NCBI GenBank assembly: GCA_050261575.1
Contig: JBLNDL010000025.1
Coordinates: 15,115 to 79,114, forward strand
Direction: 5' to 3'
DNA length: 64,000 bases
Origin: Sphingomonadaceae bacterium
Lineage (GTDB): Bacteria > Chloroflexota > UBA6077
This document shows positions 2,828 to 61,924 of the stretch, piece after piece; position 1 is the first letter of the stretch, and each line of letters begins with the position of its first letter. The notes below the pieces were generated by a model that worked only from the letters and a program-made list of their open reading frames with translations, did not search any database and had not been told where the DNA came from. The translations under genes were made by a program, and so were the position numbers.

Positions 2828-3823
2828 TCATCCACCCCGCTGTCTCAGCATCTCGTACAGCACGACCGAGCCGGCAACAGCCGCGTTCAGCGAACTCACA
2901 TGCCCCTTCATGGGCAGACGAATGAGGAAGTCGCAACTCTCCTTCATCAACTGCCCGATCCCCCGATCCTCGCCCCCTAGCACCAGCGCTGTGGGGCCGG
3001 TCATGTCCAGCTTCCAGTGCAGCCGGTCGCCCGCCATGTCGATTCCCGCCACCCAGATCCCGATTCCCTTCAGTTCCTCGGCCGCTCGCACGAGATTGGG
3101 TACCCGCGCGACCGCCATGTGCTCCACCGCGCCGGCCGACGAACGAACCACCGCGGGGGTGACATGGACCGACCGCCGCTTCGGCAGCACCACCGCATCG
3201 ACCCCAACCGCCTCGGAGGTCCGCAGCAGGCTTCCCAGGTTCTGCGGGTCCTGCAGCGTGTCCAGCAGCAGCACCACTGGGGGGTGGTCCGAGACACTCA
3301 ACCGCTCCAGCAGGTCGCCCCACCCCACGTACTCGAACGGAGCCACCACCGCAGCCATACCCTGGTGCTCCGGAGCCACCGCGTCCAACTGCTCCCGCCG
3401 CACCTCCTCCGTGACGACACCCGCCGCCGTCGCCAGCCGTATCGCTTCGCGCACCGGCTCCTCGCGCGTCGCCTCGCCGGACACGAGAAGGCGCCGCACC
3501 CGCTTCCCGGCACGCAGCGCCTCCATCACCGCGTTCCTCCCGTACAGAATCTCCTGCTCGGGAGCCATCCGAACGACCGGCCTCTCGACCGCTCGGCTCT
3601 CCGGCCGCCGCCCGCCCTCCTTGGCAGGGGCAGGCCCCCTCGCGCGTCCCCTGTCGGCCCTGGTGTCCGGCCCGGAATCTCGCTCGAGCGTACGTCCCCG
3701 ATGCGATGCTCGATTCTTCCCCTTAGCGCCACCCGTGGGTCGCCGCTCCCCACCCTCCGTCGACTGGGCCTTCCCCTTCCGGCGATCCGATTCCGGCCCG
3801 CTGCCTCTAACCATCTGCATCAC
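2828..3823 (-). CDS. rlmB: SpoU/TrmH-family 23S rRNA 2'-O-methyltransferase (RlmB-like) with Arg/Gly-rich N-terminal extension
   Basis: 331-aa ORF. ILYGRNAVMEAL, LDTLQDPQNLGSLLRTSEAVG, LVLGGEDRGI, RLPMKGHVSSLNAAVAGSVVLYE. Confidence 0.85.
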   Translation of the reverse strand: MMQMVRGSGPESDRRKGKAQSTEGGERRPTGGAKGKNRASHRGRTLERDSGPDTRADRGRARGPAPAKEGGRRPESRAVERPVVRMAPEQEILYGRNAVMEALRAGKRVRRLLVSGEATREEPVREAIRLATAAGVVTEEVRREQLDAVAPEHQGMAAVVAPFEYVGWGDLLERLSVSDHPPVVLLLDTLQDPQNLGSLLRTSEAVGVDAVVLPKRRSVHVTPAVVRSSAGAVEHMAVARVPNLVRAAEELKGIGIWVAGIDMAGDRLHWKLDMTGPTALVLGGEDRGIGQLMKESCDFLIRLPMKGHVSSLNAAVAGSVVLYEMLRQRGG

Positions 3824-3869
3824 CCGCCGTCGCGTTGTGGTCGCCTTAGCCCACGGGCGGCCCCTTTCG

Positions 3870-5309
3870 CTACGACTTCTCGCTGTATCGCCAGATCGTT
3901 CCTTCGGGCGTGTCCTCCAGGATAACCCCCAGGAGCTTCAGCCGATCCCTCACCTCGTCGGCCAGTGCCCACTGCTTACCCGCGCGCAGCTTCCCGCGCA
4001 GCTCCACGAGCAGATCGATGTAGGGATCCGCCGCGCGGCCCTCCCCGACATCCTCAGCCTCCAGCTCCAGGCCGAGCACACCTGCCAGCTCCACCAGCTT
4101 CGCCCTCGCCGGCCCCAACGCCTCGGCTGAGAAGCGCTCCTGCGTACGGAGTCGGTTGATCTCCCGCGCCAGATCGTACAGCGCTGCCAGACCCTGGGCC
4201 GTGTTGAAGTCCGAGTCCATCCCAGACTCGAACGCCTGCTGCGCCGTCTGCAACAGCCGCTCCACGGCCTCTCGCTCCGCAGCACTCGCAGGCCGCCCGG
4301 CCGCCGCCCCGCGCACCGGCTCCAGCGCCGACCGAAGCCGCGCCAACCCCTTCACCGCCACGTCGATGGACTCGTCGGTGTACGTCATCGGCGCCCGGTA
4401 CGGGGTGGATATGAGGTACAACCTCAGCGCCGCGGGCTCGTACCGATCCAGCATCTGCTGAATGGTGAGGAAGTTGTTGAGGGAGTGGGACATCTTCTCC
4501 CCACCGATGTTCAGCAGCCCGATGTGGATCCAGTACCGAACGAACGGCGAGCAATGGCAGTACGCCTCGCTCTGGGCAATCTCGTTCTCGTGGTGGGGGA
4601 AGATCAGGTCCCGGCCCCCCGCGTGGATGTCGATCTGCTCGCCCAGCGTCTCCTTGATCATCGTCGAGCACTCGATGTGCCATCCGGGCCGCCCCGGTCC
4701 CCACGGGCTGTCCCACGCAGGCTCCCCCGGCTTCGCCCGCTTCCACAGCGCGAAGTCCCTCGGGTCCCGCTTGCTCGCATCCACCTCGATGCGAGCCCCG
4801 GCCATAACCCCCTCTTCACTCCTCCCAGACAGCTTGCCGTACTCCGGAGACTTGGCCACCTCGAAGTAGACGTTGCCCTCCACCTCGTAGGCGTACCCCT
4901 CGGCGATCAGCTTCTCCACGAACTCGATGATCGCTGGAATCACCAGCGTCGCCTTGGGATAGTCGTCCGCGTGGAGCACGTTCAGCGCGTCCATCGACTC
5001 GAAGTAGGAGCGAGTGTACTTCTCCGCCACCTCGTGGGCCGGGATCCCCTCTTTGTTGGCCCGCGCGATGATCTTGTCGTCCACGTCCGTGAAGTTCTGT
5101 ACGTGATGCACCTGGTATCCCCTGTAACGGAGGTACCGCCTGATCACATCCATGGCAACGAAGAGACGGGCATGCCCAATGTGGGGATGGAACTTCGGGG
5201 TCATCCCGCAGACGTACATCTGCACCACGTCGCCCCGCGGCTGGAACTCCTCCTCCGTCCCCGAAATGGTGTTGAAGACTCTAAGCCCCAATCTGATCCT
5301 CCAGATCAT
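3870..5309 (-). CDS. cysS: cysteine--tRNA ligase
   Basis: YVCGMTPKFHPHIGHAR (HIGH), GWHIECS, KMSHSLNN (KMSKS-like). Start set at ATG 5309 (MIWR...); TTG at 5291 is an alternative. The upstream ORF extension to 5360 overlaps ispF. Confidence 0.9.
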   Translation of the reverse strand: MIWRIRLGLRVFNTISGTEEEFQPRGDVVQMYVCGMTPKFHPHIGHARLFVAMDVIRRYLRYRGYQVHHVQNFTDVDDKIIARANKEGIPAHEVAEKYTRSYFESMDALNVLHADDYPKATLVIPAIIEFVEKLIAEGYAYEVEGNVYFEVAKSPEYGKLSGRSEEGVMAGARIEVDASKRDPRDFALWKRAKPGEPAWDSPWGPGRPGWHIECSTMIKETLGEQIDIHAGGRDLIFPHHENEIAQSEAYCHCSPFVRYWIHIGLLNIGGEKMSHSLNNFLTIQQMLDRYEPAALRLYLISTPYRAPMTYTDESIDVAVKGLARLRSALEPVRGAAAGRPASAAEREAVERLLQTAQQAFESGMDSDFNTAQGLAALYDLAREINRLRTQERFSAEALGPARAKLVELAGVLGLELEAEDVGEGRAADPYIDLLVELRGKLRAGKQWALADEVRDRLKLLGVILEDTPEGTIWRYSEKS

Positions 5310-5799
5310 CCTCTTCACGTCGCGCGAGCAGGGCAACGGCCATCGCCGCGATGCCCTCACCCCGACCGACGAAGCCCAACCCCTCGTTGGTGGTGGCCTT
5401 TATCCCGATCTGCCCCACGCCGATGCCCAGCTCCTCCGCCATAGCGCGTTTCATCCTGTCCAAATGGGGCGAGAGCTTCGGCTCCTCCGCCAACACCGTG
5501 GCATCCACGTTGACCACACGCCAGCCCGAACGCTCCACCATGGAACGCACGGTCGCCAGCAGCTTCAGGCTGGAGGCATCGCGAAACCGCTCGTCGCCCG
5601 GCGGAAACTGGTGCCCGATATCCTCCATCCCGGCCGCCCCGAGCATCGCGTCCATCACGGCATGCAGCAGGGCGTCGGCATCGGAGTAGCCCTCGAGCCC
5701 GCGGGAGTACTCTATCCTCACCCCGCCCAGCACGAGGGCTCTCCCCTCCACCAGCCTATGAGCGTCGTAGCCCATGCCCACACGTATCTGCTGAGACAT
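5281..5799 (-). CDS. ispF: 2-C-methyl-D-erythritol 2,4-cyclodiphosphate synthase
   Basis: IRVGMGYDAHRL, GYSDADALLHAVMDAMLGA, DIGHQFP. Start at ATG 5799 (MSQQ) is preferred; the ORF is open to 5853. Confidence 0.88.
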   Translation of the reverse strand: MSQQIRVGMGYDAHRLVEGRALVLGGVRIEYSRGLEGYSDADALLHAVMDAMLGAAGMEDIGHQFPPGDERFRDASSLKLLATVRSMVERSGWRVVNVDATVLAEEPKLSPHLDRMKRAMAEELGIGVGQIGIKATTNEGLGFVGRGEGIAAMAVALLARREEDDLEDQIGA

Positions 5800-5924
5800 C
5801 CCCCAGCCCCTGCCCTCACCCAGCGCGGAGATTGTGGCCTCGCGCCTCTCCATCGGCGGGTGTGACGCACCCGCGGCTCTGACCTAGCCCGCGACGCACA
5901 GCACGCGGGAGACGGGCTGCGACG

Positions 5925-6671
5925 TTAGTCGGAACGGCACCCTTCCACCAGTGCGCTTGCGACCTCCAGATCCTCCGGCGTCGTCAGCTTGAAGTTGCGG
6001 GGGTCGCCGGGCACGATCCTGACGGGTCGGCCCAGCAGCTCCACCGCAGCCGCATCGTCGGTGACCTCCCGATCCAGCCTGGCGTACGCCTCTCGGATCA
6101 ACTCAGTCCGAAACACCTGAGGCGTCTGCACCGCCCACAGGTTCGACCGATCGACGGTCTCCACGACCCACAGATCGCTGCTCGCCCTCTTGAGCGTGTC
6201 CCTCACCGCGACCGCCGGAACGGCTGCTCCGTCCCTCTCCGCCGCGCGGTAGCACGCTTCGATAAGCGCCGGTGTCACCATCGGTCGAGCACCGTCGTGG
6301 ACCGCCACCAAACCCTCTTCAGGCAGCGCGTCCAGCCCGTTCCTCACCGAGTCCTGCCGGCGTTCGCCGCCCTCACACACGGTGGCATGGATCCCCAGCC
6401 GCGCAACCAGTTCCCGCCCTCGATCCATTCTCGCCGGAGCAACTACCAGGATCAGCCGTTCGACAGACGGACAGGTGGCGAAAGCTCTGAGGGAGTGGGC
6501 GACAACGGGCAGGCCGCCCAGCGGCAGCCACACCTTGTCCTCGCCCATCCGCGTCCCGCGCCCCGCCGCCACGATTATCGCTGCACGAGACGAGGACCGA
6601 GGACTGGGGACTGAGGACTGTGCAGATCCCTGATCACTCAGCCCTGAGTCCCCCGTCCTCAGCCCTCGCAT
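5925..6671 (-). CDS. ispD: 2-C-methyl-D-erythritol 4-phosphate cytidylyltransferase
   Basis: AIIVAAGRGTRMG, VAVHDGARP, VQTPQVF. The N-terminal ~30 aa are low complexity, so the start is uncertain. Confidence 0.85.
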   Translation of the reverse strand: MRGLRTGDSGLSDQGSAQSSVPSPRSSSRAAIIVAAGRGTRMGEDKVWLPLGGLPVVAHSLRAFATCPSVERLILVVAPARMDRGRELVARLGIHATVCEGGERRQDSVRNGLDALPEEGLVAVHDGARPMVTPALIEACYRAAERDGAAVPAVAVRDTLKRASSDLWVVETVDRSNLWAVQTPQVFRTELIREAYARLDREVTDDAAAVELLGRPVRIVPGDPRNFKLTTPEDLEVASALVEGCRSD

Positions 6672-6683
6672 CTATCTCCCCGT

Positions 6684-7736
6684 CTAGTTCTGGTGCGGCG
6701 CCTTGGGATGGGCGAAGATCATCCGCCCGGCGACCGTCTGCAGCACTCGAGTGACCACTATGTCGAGGTCGGCATTGATATGCCGGCGTCCGTTCTCGAC
6801 CACCACCATGGTGCCGTCGTCCAGGTAGGCAACACCCTGCCCGAACTCCTTGCCCTCCTGGATGATCCGCACCACCATCTCCTCCCCGGGGAACACCACC
6901 GACTTCACCGCGTTGGCCAGCTCGTTGATGTTGAGCACCTTCACGCCCTGCAGCTCGGCGACGCGGTTCAGGTTGTAGTCGTTGGTGATTATCGCACAGC
7001 GCATGTTCTTCGCCAGCCGAACCAGCTTCCCGTCCACGTCGGGGATGTTGTCCACGTCCACGTCCGAGATCTCGATCGGCGCCACGGATTCCTTCTGCAG
7101 CTTGTTCAGCATCTCCAATCCCCGCCGGCCCCGATTGCGCCTTACGGCGTCGGGCGAATCGGCAATCTGCTGCAACTCAGCCAGGACGAATCGCGGGATC
7201 ACCATCGTCCCGGCGATGAAGCCGGTGTGGCTGATGTCGGCCACCCGGCCATCGATGATGGCGCTCGTGTCCACCAGCACACGGCTGTGGTCCTGCCCTC
7301 CCTTTCCTCTCCCGGATTCCCTGGGCAAGCCGATCAACTGGAACACCTCTTTCCGATGGGTCACCATGATGGTGGCCCCGAAGTATCCGAGCACCAGACT
7401 CGCCACCACGGGCAGAAACCGCCCCAGATACGACGGAAGCATGGACAGGGGAAGGGCGAGCAGGGCCGCAGTGAGCAAGCCCCCGACCAGGCCCACCGCC
7501 CCGGCTACCACGTCCTGAGCGGGCATGGCGGTGGCTTTGGATCTCGCCCAATTGAAGGGCCTGGTCGTCACGTACGGGGTCACCAGCAACCCCAGTCCGA
7601 ACGAGGCAGCGGCGATGGTGAAGACGTAGAGTAGATGATTGGGAGATGAAGTATCAGCAAGAATAAGGCCGAACTGCCAGCCCAACATCGCCGCCACCAC
7701 TGCGCCGACAACGCGGATGGCCAACTCGATACTCAT
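6684..7736 (-). CDS. yacL: membrane-anchored PIN + TRAM domain protein (YacL family)
   Basis: Four N-terminal TM segments, then VLVDTSAIIDGRV..VIPRFVLAELQ (PIN) and a C-terminal TRAM-like GEEMVVRIIQEGKEFGQGVAYLDDGTMVVV. AAGGAG SD 7 nt upstream of the ATG. Confidence 0.8.
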   Translation of the reverse strand: MSIELAIRVVGAVVAAMLGWQFGLILADTSSPNHLLYVFTIAAASFGLGLLVTPYVTTRPFNWARSKATAMPAQDVVAGAVGLVGGLLTAALLALPLSMLPSYLGRFLPVVASLVLGYFGATIMVTHRKEVFQLIGLPRESGRGKGGQDHSRVLVDTSAIIDGRVADISHTGFIAGTMVIPRFVLAELQQIADSPDAVRRNRGRRGLEMLNKLQKESVAPIEISDVDVDNIPDVDGKLVRLAKNMRCAIITNDYNLNRVAELQGVKVLNINELANAVKSVVFPGEEMVVRIIQEGKEFGQGVAYLDDGTMVVVENGRRHINADLDIVVTRVLQTVAGRMIFAHPKAPHQN

Positions 7737-7799
7737 GTCACTTCTCCTTGTCCGTCCAGACGTCTATGCTCCGTCTACTTTGCTGCACCCCCTCAAACA

Positions 7800-7933
7800 G
7801 AACAAAAAATGTACTTGCCGCGGCTCAAGTACATTCGGCTCTACGCATCTATGCCGCTGAACGCATCAGCCGTTCCCTCGCCATGGAGCCAGACGGAAAC
7901 GCACGAGGGCACACAGGATCCCGATCTAGCTGA
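7800..7933 (-). ncRNA. candidate small RNA or cis-regulatory leader (unclassified), bounded by a consensus promoter and an intrinsic terminator
   Basis: Lies between the promoter at 7940-7969 and the hairpin/U-tract at 7804-7835. No ORF with an SD. Contains direct repeat GATGCGT x2 and local helices GCCCTCG/CGAGGG and GGCTC/GAGCC. The ends are estimates. Confidence 0.45.
7804..7835 (-). terminator. intrinsic terminator (hairpin + U tract) 65 nt upstream of yacL
   Basis: On the minus strand AATGTACTTG-AGCCGCGG-CAAGTACATT is followed by TTTTTTG. Confidence 0.7.
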
Positions 7934-7939
7934 GTCTCG

Positions 7940-7969
7940 ATACTAGCACAGCTAACGGTTTTGTGTCAA
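7940..7969 (-). promoter_or_regulatory. near-consensus sigma70 promoter with no protein gene directly downstream
   Basis: Minus strand: -35 TTGACA, 18-nt spacer, -10 TAGTAT. Same quality as the tRNA promoters in this window. Confidence 0.65.
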
Positions 7970-7990
7970 AGGCTGAAAGTAGCTGAAGAC

Positions 7991-8019
7991 AGTGGGGCGG
8001 GTCTGGGACCCGCCCCACT
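7991..8019 (-). terminator. terminator hairpin after the decarboxylase beta-subunit gene
   Basis: Perfect 13-bp stem AGTGGGGCGGGTC/GACCCGCCCCACT with a 3-nt loop, 50 nt downstream of the stop at 8070. Confidence 0.65.
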
Positions 8020-8069
8020 CTGTCCGCAGGCGAAGGGAGCCACTGCCGGTTCCCCGGGCATAATCACAT

Positions 8070-9191
8070 CTATCCGGCCAGAAGTGCCAGCACTGCGCCG
8101 CCCGCCATCACGGAGCCGATCTGGCCCGCCGTGTTGGAGCCCATCGCGTGCATGATCAAGAAGTTGTTGGGGTTCGCCTCCAAGCCGACCCGGTTCACCA
8201 CTCGAGCTGACATGGGGAAGGCGGAGATGCCGGAGGCGCCTATCAGCGGGTTCACCTTCCCGCGGGTAATCACGCTCAGCGCCTTCCCGAAGGAGAGGCC
8301 GGCCACCGTGTCGAGCATGAACGCCACCAGACCCATTCCGATGATCAGCAGGGTCTGCGTCGTTAGGAACTTCTCCGCCACCATGGTCGAGCCGATGGTG
8401 ATGCCCAGGAAGATGGTCACGATGTTGATCAGCTCGTTCTGGGCAGCGTTGGAGAGTCGCTCCACCACGCCGGCCTCTCGCAGCAGGTTCCCGAACATCA
8501 GCATGCCGATCAAGGGCGCGGACATGGGGGCGATCAGGCCGCACACGAGCGTCGTGACGATGGGGAAGAGGATCTTCGTCTGCTTGGAGACGGGCTTGCT
8601 GGTGTACGCCATGGGGATCGCCCGCTCCGACTCCGTCGTCAGCGCCCGCATGATGGGTGGCTGGATGATCGGCACCAGCGACATGTAGGAGTATGCCGCC
8701 ACCGCGATCGGAGCCAGCAGATGAGGCGCCAGGACCGAGGCCACGTAGATGGAGGTGGGGCCATCGGCGGATCCGATGATCCCGATGGAAGCAGCTTCGT
8801 TGATCTTGAAGCCCAGCAGGGTCGCCACCAAGAGGGTGCCGAAGATCCCGAACTGAGCCGCCGCCCCCAGGATAACCGTGTAGGGCCGTTCCAGCAGCGG
8901 GCCGAAGTCGGTCATCGCGCCGACGCCGATAAAGATAAGCAGAGGGAACAGCTCGTTCTTGATGCCAGCGTCGTAGAGCACGGTAAACAGCCCACCTGGC
9001 GCATTCAACTCCGTCGCCGGGATGTTCGCCAGGATAGCCCCCGCCCCGATGGGCAGCAGCAACACCGGCTCGTACTCCTTGGCTATGGCCAGGTAGATCA
9101 GGATCCCGCCCACCCCAATCATGACCAGGTGGCCCCACTGGAGATGGAGTAATCCCTCTACCAGCTTCACAGTCACGCCCGAGTCAATCAT
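8070..9191 (-). CDS. oadB: Na+-translocating decarboxylase beta subunit (OadB/GcdB/MmdB family)
   Basis: 373-aa polytopic membrane protein. GVGAMTDFGPLL, IGIIGSADGPTSIY, AAYSYMSLVPIIQPP are typical of the family. Confidence 0.85.
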   Translation of the reverse strand: MIDSGVTVKLVEGLLHLQWGHLVMIGVGGILIYLAIAKEYEPVLLLPIGAGAILANIPATELNAPGGLFTVLYDAGIKNELFPLLIFIGVGAMTDFGPLLERPYTVILGAAAQFGIFGTLLVATLLGFKINEAASIGIIGSADGPTSIYVASVLAPHLLAPIAVAAYSYMSLVPIIQPPIMRALTTESERAIPMAYTSKPVSKQTKILFPIVTTLVCGLIAPMSAPLIGMLMFGNLLREAGVVERLSNAAQNELINIVTIFLGITIGSTMVAEKFLTTQTLLIIGMGLVAFMLDTVAGLSFGKALSVITRGKVNPLIGASGISAFPMSARVVNRVGLEANPNNFLIMHAMGSNTAGQIGSVMAGGAVLALLAG

Positions 9192-61316: not shown

Positions 61317-61346
61317 ATTCTAGCCCACCCCGCCCAAGGGTGTCAA
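61317..61346 (-). promoter_or_regulatory. near-consensus sigma70 promoter of the tRNA-Phe-Gly-Cys unit
   Basis: Minus strand: -35 TTGACA, 18-nt spacer, -10 TAGAAT. tRNA-Phe starts 16 nt after the -10. Confidence 0.7.
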
Positions 61347-61896: not shown

Positions 61897-61924
61897 ATTA
61901 TAGCACTGGGGCCACCGGTGTCAA
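61897..61924 (-). promoter_or_regulatory. consensus sigma70 promoter of tRNA-Leu
   Basis: Minus strand: -35 TTGACA, 16-nt spacer, -10 TATAAT. tRNA-Leu starts 25 nt after the -10. Confidence 0.7.

Follow-up and report, generated by a model that had tools for sequence, protein, structure and literature searches.

A family-specific promoter, core and terminator unit upstream of a yacL-ispD-ispF-cysS-rlmB operon in Chloroflexota, a candidate transcription attenuator leader

The leader and its closest described counterparts

Bacterial attenuation leaders (riboswitches, T-boxes, protein-dependent and leader-peptide attenuators) combine a promoter, a leader and a hairpin with a U tract ahead of an operon, with conserved sequence beside or inside the terminator. 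We describe a locus with this layout in a 64,000-nt stretch of DNA (the window, whose positions give all coordinates below) from Sphingomonadaceae bacterium assembly GCA_050261575.1, contig JBLNDL010000025.1, where a promoter, a leader of about 130 nt and an intrinsic terminator precede an operon that begins with a PIN/TRAM ('yacL'-like) gene. In contrast to the described leaders, this one matches no curated family, has no demonstrable antiterminator or aptamer fold and is found in one Chloroflexota family. Judging from comparative sequence analysis, we put about even weight on its being a default-OFF transcription attenuator leader of the yacL(PIN/TRAM)-ispD-ispF-cysS-rlmB operon, with read-through set via a conserved core. 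If the hairpin is conditional, the leader would gate two essential enzymes of the methylerythritol phosphate pathway, cysteinyl-tRNA synthetase and an rRNA methylase; our search of the open-access literature turned up neither a described leader or riboswitch for yacL or ispD nor a regulator of that gene set. In order of transcription, the parts of the locus are:

7940..7969, minus strand: promoter of sigma-70 type, with TTGACA (7969-7964), an 18-nt spacer, TAGTAT (7945-7940) and TG one base before the -10 box
7933..7937, minus strand: predicted transcription start, placed from the position of the -10 box
7880..7932, minus strand: variable 5' segment, unconserved in sequence, with a length to the core of 54-62 nt in six sequences
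7859..7876, minus strand: 18-nt core, GGAACGGCTGATGCGTTC in the window, which has C as its eighth letter, and GGAACGGGTGATGCGTTC as the family consensus
7849..7866, minus strand: mini-open reading frame (mini-ORF) ATG CGT TCA GCG GCA TAG, with a Shine-Dalgarno (SD)-like GAGGGA at 7879-7874 and its ATG 9 nt after GAGG
7836..7858, minus strand: spacer between core and terminator (identity 0.45), the distance from core start to stem being constant at 42-44 nt
7804..7835, minus strand: intrinsic terminator, a 10-bp perfect stem AATGTACTTG/CAAGTACATT (7835-7826 / 7817-7808) with an 8-nt loop and T6 at 7809-7804
7788..7803, minus strand: post-terminator stretch, GTTC right after the T tract and then an orphan SD-like GAGGGGG (7788-7794) that lacks a start codon
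6684..7736, minus strand: PIN/TRAM ('yacL'-like) membrane protein gene, with its ATG at 7736 and SD AAGGAG at 7749-7744

The HMP-PP riboswitch (thiS motif; PMC6478431) looks like a plain terminator of unusual conservation; the left shoulder of that terminator takes part in its competing structure, and in thermodynamic models the terminator alone is seen. Our locus shares with it the plain-terminator look, the conservation and a possible competing pairing at the left shoulder, but here the arms rather than the loop are conserved, an extra core lies 42-44 nt 5' of the stem, no thiamin genes are involved and the Rfam model of the motif finds no match. Leader-peptide attenuators and short regulatory upstream ORFs, such as trpL, pyrL and the erm/cat leaders, offer a second comparison. 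They resemble the locus in having an SD-like run, an ATG and an ORF (here of 4-13 codons) just 5' of the terminator, with a stop that is kept through a UAG-to-UGA change; unlike them, the locus has no codon run related to its operon, is constrained at the RNA level and ends its ORF at inconsistent positions relative to the stem.

A third comparison concerns the first gene, whose predicted product is an endoribonuclease with a PIN domain. The autoregulated ribonuclease genes rne, rnc and pnp carry regulatory 5' untranslated regions, and the type III toxin-antitoxin system ToxIN consists of a promoter, an RNA, a terminator and an endoribonuclease gene; as in these, a conserved RNA element and a terminator lie directly 5' of the ribonuclease gene. 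The PIN/TRAM gene differs from ToxIN in being widely conserved and of housekeeping type, with isoprenoid and translation genes behind it. The PIN/TRAM protein possibly acts on its own leader, an idea that we keep as a candidate. A type III toxin-antitoxin layout is not supported: Tandem Repeats Finder returned 0 rows in the leader, and there is just one imperfect 17-nt direct repeat, seen in this genome. That repeat spans 7833-7867 and takes in the core's 3' half and 10 further nt, which recur in the spacer with 13/17 positions identical; none was noticed in the relatives.

Distribution and conservation of the unit

A BLAST search with the 211-nt unit gave matches in three of 41 related genomes, and diverged copies were found in the remaining two genomes of the window's family by reading the regions upstream of the PIN/TRAM gene, which itself was matched in 23 of 39 genomes of the order (E <= 1e-20). 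A covariance model (R1), built from five sequences and covering 90 positions from core to terminator, matched five of 66 genomes of the class, namely all five of the window's family with one match each, and did not find the unit in the 61 class genomes outside the family. Across the phylum it matched two of 151 sampled genomes, both from the window's family, and did not find the unit in the other 149 (both sets are of species representatives, some incomplete). The window's own genome gave one real match plus one at E = 9.7. Neither the covariance model nor a fuzzy search found second copies or a regulon in that genome, where the next-best core match has three mismatches and the exact hairpin arms are present only at the leader locus.

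Pattern searches extended the set by one sequence. The strict pattern GAGGGAACNGNTGATGCGTTCAG returned only two close relatives from genome contigs and nothing from metagenome contigs; the two score as G004 and G002 and were counted as the same sequences. A looser pattern returned 15 metagenome loci, 14 of them chance matches (<= 13.6 bits) and one real (L041, 67.7 bits), whose PIN/TRAM protein is 91% identical to that of the window. Contigs from four DNA sequencing runs neither covered the leader nor supplied variants of it. The data set thus holds six distinct sequences, five from the family's genomes and one from the metagenome contig L041.

In 6/6 loci the unit adjoins the PIN/TRAM gene and is co-oriented with it, including G002, which has a different upstream neighbour. 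Conservation upstream of yacL in relatives, which the preliminary description of this DNA had proposed as a check, is therefore seen in all five family genomes and in L041. The promoter is kept as TTGACA-18-TA[GC]nAT in all six, and the distance from predicted start to ATG is 193-198 nt in five of them and 315 nt in L041, where some 120 extra nt stand between the terminator and the yacL start (about 1290-1470 of that contig, minus strand).

Column identity is 66% for the leader versus 91% for a yacL coding stretch that serves as baseline. Pairwise identity reaches 0.93 in the core and 0.91 and 0.90 in the terminator arms, versus 0.34-0.45 in flanks, spacer and loop, while the 5' segment (0.56) compares with 0.54 for shuffled partners. 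Because these conserved islands keep a constant spacing within randomised sequence, the unit appears to be functional and not a chance pairing of promoter and terminator. On this evidence it is under selection, as a family-specific, single-copy element of promoter, core and terminator.

By itself a single promoter match is weak evidence: a consensus scan of 20 kb, in which the 7969 promoter scores 10/12 with the TG present, gave four sites versus 1.9 expected. The locus exceeds chance because promoter, core and hairpin are conserved together in the six related loci. Two tRNA promoters in the window, at 61317-61346 and 61897-61924 (minus strand) directly 5' of tRNA genes, score 11/12 and 12/12; being at or near consensus, they indicate that the lineage uses canonical sigma-70 hexamers in a genome of 65.4% G+C. 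The leader promoter had been called their equal and turns out to be slightly weaker, at 10/12 versus 12/12 and 11/12. The anatomy given in the preliminary description is otherwise confirmed on the minus strand, from the GC-rich hairpin at 8019-7991 and TTGACA-18-TAGTAT through about 130 nt to the 10-bp hairpin with T6, the SD and the ATG at 7736.

The terminator has the hairpin and U tract that define an intrinsic terminator, and the hairpin is kept in all six sequences, with a folding energy of -11.6 kcal/mol in the window and -7.6 to -12.4 across the set, and U-rich tails in five. On the six-sequence alignment, 91.7% of the cells of the stem are paired, seven of the ten pairs are invariant and one covaries (AU<->GC). 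In G002 (L012, about 1660-1680) the hairpin is intact and the U tract is interrupted as TTTCTAG; either termination is weak in this relative, or some other role preserves the hairpin.

At the Rfam gathering threshold the window gives only tRNAs, and with the limit relaxed to E = 10 neither 7650-8100 nor the leaders of five relatives give a plausible match. As far as covariance models tell, this excludes the known classes of riboswitch, the T-boxes and the thiS motif. This agrees with the earlier report of neither a T-box nor a common riboswitch core, and reading the six leaders revealed no UGGN-containing bulge of the T-box kind. That the class may be new accordingly holds to the extent that no Rfam family covers it, and is limited by its occurrence so far in six sequences, with a single copy in each genome, from one uncultured soil Chloroflexota family; no described family takes it in, but its kind is well known. 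The LexA box, cre, boxA, ops, tRNA/anticodon mimicry, ANTAR, and the fluoride and ZTP riboswitches were also weighed as possible resemblances and set aside for want of support.

Attenuation and its rivals

Where the preliminary description had left a choice between an abundant small RNA (sRNA) and a riboswitch/attenuator leader, the analysis favours the attenuator leader, given the PIN/TRAM linkage in all six loci, and does not support a metabolite riboswitch, only 18 nt and the hairpin being conserved. From the observed anatomy, conservation, single copy and gene linkage, we infer termination, its conditionality and its mechanism as follows. RNA polymerase would initiate at the near-consensus promoter, at about 7935, and after some 130 nt would meet an unobstructed hairpin and U6, where most transcripts would end, near 7804, as a leader RNA of about 130 nt; the operon would be expressed only from the read-through fraction. 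The invariant 18-nt core, 42-44 nt 5' of the stem, is proposed to set this read-through: its UGCGUU may pair with AAUGUA at the base of the terminator 5' arm, and a bound factor that holds this pairing would leave the hairpin incomplete, with only the terminator tip formed, an arrangement close to that of the HMP-PP riboswitch in its ON state (PMC6478431). Such a factor may be a protein, possibly the PIN/TRAM ribonuclease itself, or a ribosome on the mini-ORF. A macromolecular effector seems likelier than a metabolite because conservation is so limited and the sequences have no multi-helix fold in common.

The position of the promoter relative to the gene argues for a leader. In other families of the order, seven of 18 loci carry TTGAC[ACG]-17-TAGAGT 107-175 nt 5' of the PIN/TRAM gene with no terminator between them (the count includes L024, from the unpublished genome G037, and is six of 17 when this locus is omitted; three 'terminator' calls in these sister-family loci sit at or 5' of the -35 box). 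These positions suggest that the 7969 promoter is the positional equivalent of the PIN/TRAM gene's own promoter. Reading of the family's upstream regions revealed no other conserved promoter along the approximately 65 nt that separate T tract and ATG. As ispD, ispF and cysS are expected to be essential, the operon appears to depend on read-through of the hairpin. Its linkage, own promoter and apparent read-through dependence are why we prefer a leader with an attenuator to a free-standing sRNA.

Folding is consistent with termination as the default. In nascent RNAs that lack the 3' arm, the terminator 5' arm is paired with probabilities of 0.38, 0.22, 0.15, 0.61, 0.70 and 0.55 versus shuffle means of 0.45-0.64, so that in the six sequences it is never significantly sequestered and is twice notably free, and in the full leader the terminator stem has a pairing probability of 0.74-1.00. 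With a free 5' arm and a stable stem, thermodynamics predicts default termination. The whole-leader fold is no more stable than that of shuffled sequences (minimum free energy z = 0.25), and a three-sequence RNAalifold fold has a positive, that is unfavourable, covariation term.

The best candidate for a competing helix joins the 3' half of the core to the base of the terminator 5' arm (UGCGUUC:GAAUGUA). Over 42 cells, 85.7% are paired, versus 14-55% in slid registers; a compensatory change (CG<->UA) occurs once, and three further changes alter one side without breaking the pair. Other pairings were examined and rejected. A core hairpin GAACG/CGUUC is 93% paired, has no covariation and is broken at one pair in each of two different sequences; pairing of core CGGGUG with arm UACUUG is 97.2% paired and invariant, fits five sequences and is broken in the window's own. 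Complementarity between 5' segment and core is at chance in five of six sequences by comparison with shuffles (z of -0.8 to +1.3), G003 alone standing out at z = -2.8, and a P1-like helix between these parts was dropped accordingly. Pairings of the core with the terminator 3' arm and U tract, or of the flank with the terminator loop, seen by eye or with RNAduplex, differ in register between sequences.

The stretch had been described as about 130 nt without an SD-led ORF, which does not hold entirely, as the mini-ORF at 7866-7849 is conserved in all six sequences with 4-13 codons, an SD-like purine run and its ATG inside the core. Its peptides are MRSAA, MRSEQ, MRSEP, MRSEA, MHSR and MRLRHIGDEWKCT. 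Four of the six share the alignment columns of their stop (UAG in three and UGA in L041, where a double change preserves a stop), and G003 has gained one base and, together with it, an additional UAG in frame. Codons within the core are invariant at third positions though neutral sites are saturated, which points to constraint on the RNA rather than on a coded peptide; the two amino-acid differences in the core region are non-synonymous. No codon run tied to the operon products was found in the six mini-ORFs. Among the marks of a leader-peptide attenuator, SD, start and short ORF are thus present, and regulatory codons and a consistent ribosome position are not.

Several observations weigh against the attenuator reading. 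Thermodynamic folding, controlled with shuffles, predicts no antiterminator above chance. The core-arm helix, of 6-7 bp with two G-U pairs, is far weaker than the terminator, and in none of the six nascent RNAs does its ensemble probability exceed 0.01 when no stabilising factor is assumed. Nearly all pairs are invariant in every candidate helix of the six sequences, so that covariation decides nothing. The eroded U tract beside an intact hairpin in G002 hints at a role other than termination, and a promoter-to-terminator unit with a short conserved motif is also what an sRNA gene would look like. As for the ribosome, five sequences have 14-19 nt between the end of the mini-ORF and the stem, and in G001 the ORF stops within the stem. 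Because the end varies relative to the stem, a ribosome would act oppositely between species, and no one ribosome logic accommodates all six. Ribosome sensing on the mini-ORF is accordingly one possible form of the attenuator and not our principal claim.

A bolder version of the attenuator is one that we regard as doubtful. In it, core and invariant terminator would make up a new compact sensing element, whether as a riboswitch built into the terminator or as the place where a dedicated antiterminator binds. Cys-tRNA charging, 23S rRNA methylation and the early part of isoprenoid synthesis would then answer jointly to one signal, and that signal might be what the membrane PIN/TRAM ribonuclease does to its own leader.

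The rival that survives best, unlikely but with a real chance of being right, is a stand-alone trans-acting sRNA of about 130 nt, whose core would be a seed for targets elsewhere and whose leakage into yacL would be incidental. It would account for a near-consensus promoter of its own and a good terminator, both conserved, for the typical sRNA pattern of a variable 5' part, a short conserved motif and a conserved terminator, and for a terminator arm left free as in a constitutive terminator. However, an independent locus would not be expected to stand always beside yacL (6/6), at a fixed distance in five of six, with neither space nor evidence for a conserved promoter 3' of it, or to have an equivalent in sister families that appears to drive yacL directly. 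Nor does the core look like an accessible seed, being mostly paired in the prediction (probability unpaired 0.29-0.43), G-rich and not anti-SD-like.

An unregulated partial terminator, a leaky hairpin that damps a strong promoter to a low fixed level while the core serves RNA stability or processing, we consider improbable. It sits well with the absence of an antiterminator above chance, with a modest hairpin (three G-C pairs in ten, in a genome of 65% GC) and with the one relative whose U tract is interrupted. A plain terminator, however, needs neither invariant arms and an upstream 18-mer amid randomised sequence nor a constant spacing between them.

A compact metabolite riboswitch fares no better and is likewise improbable. 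Its aptamer would be largely embedded in the terminator or adjoin it, as in HMP-PP/thiS, with a ligand such as an isoprenoid-pathway intermediate or cysteine. The unusually conserved terminator stem, the invariant motif at constant distance and a core pairing with the left shoulder of the terminator that all six sequences can form are compatible with it, and such elements can pass for plain terminators in thermodynamic models, as the HMP-PP precedent indicates (PMC6478431). On the other hand, none of the riboswitch models of Rfam gives a match up to E = 10, no conserved multi-stem fold or covariation-backed aptamer emerges, and the loop is unconserved (0.45), unlike that of thiS; the element is confined to a single family, with one copy in each genome, and an operon that mixes unrelated pathways suggests no ligand. 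Very improbable is a role of the conserved blocks as DNA, with the palindromes GAACG-N7-CGTTC and GTACTTG...CAAGTAC as operators for an elongation-blocking dimeric repressor: both blocks are inverted repeats, and symmetric arm conservation is what a dimeric DNA-binding protein would impose, but the T tract after the hairpin is conserved in five of six, each palindrome is unique in the genome, the start lies 60-125 bp 5' of the sites and three of six sequences carry single-arm substitutions in the first palindrome.

Flanking genes and further observations

The remaining features around the leader are:

8072-8070, minus strand: stop of the upstream gene, a Na+-pump decarboxylase beta-subunit gene
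7991..8019, minus strand: GC-rich hairpin after the decarboxylase beta-subunit gene, with no clear U tract
5925-6671, minus strand: ispD
5281-5853, minus strand: ispF
3870-5360, minus strand: cysS
2828-3823, minus strand: SpoU-type rlmB-like methylase gene, the last in the remainder of the operon (2828..6671)

The gene names given earlier stand for ispD, which follows yacL after a gap of 12 nt, and for ispF, cysS and the SpoU-type rlmB-like gene. The name yacL is to be read with more care, since the 350-aa product of the first gene has a PIN domain match of 29 bits, above the cut-off, and a weak TRAM match of 17.1 bits, under the 21-bit cut-off. On the plus strand, ORFs of 45, 61 and 73 aa across the region were rejected as genes: they are not kept in relatives, and their similarity tracks nucleotide conservation and the antisense of the yacL coding part.

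Downstream of the terminator, GTTC follows the T tract in five of six sequences, and a GGAGG-like run that lacks a start codon lies about 10 nt past the terminator in all six (L011-L014 and L041 besides the window). These orphan SD-like runs resemble the mRNA-stabilising 'STAB-SD' elements of Bacillus. Another family of the order (L020, L026, L029, L030) has a similar AAGGAGGCCC close to the start of its yacL leaders. In the window, 7770-7776 is perfectly complementary over 7 nt to 7891-7897, and a read-through RNA could close a long-range helix around core and hairpin; by eye, CU-rich tracts 5' of the core in the relatives could pair similarly with the GGAGG runs.

The gene order radA-yacL-ispD-ispF is known from Firmicutes. 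In several other families of the order (L016, L019, L021, L022, L023, L025, L030, L031), the gene 5' of the PIN/TRAM gene resembles radA, judged by eye from the end of the upstream coding sequence, which would give them the Firmicutes order; in contrast, the window's family has a decarboxylase operon at this position. In L032 (G018), the region 5' of the PIN/TRAM gene holds three tandem GC-rich units of about 60 nt with the palindrome CCCTCTCCCAG(A/G)GGGAGAGGG, in appearance an array like those of repetitive extragenic palindromic (REP) elements.

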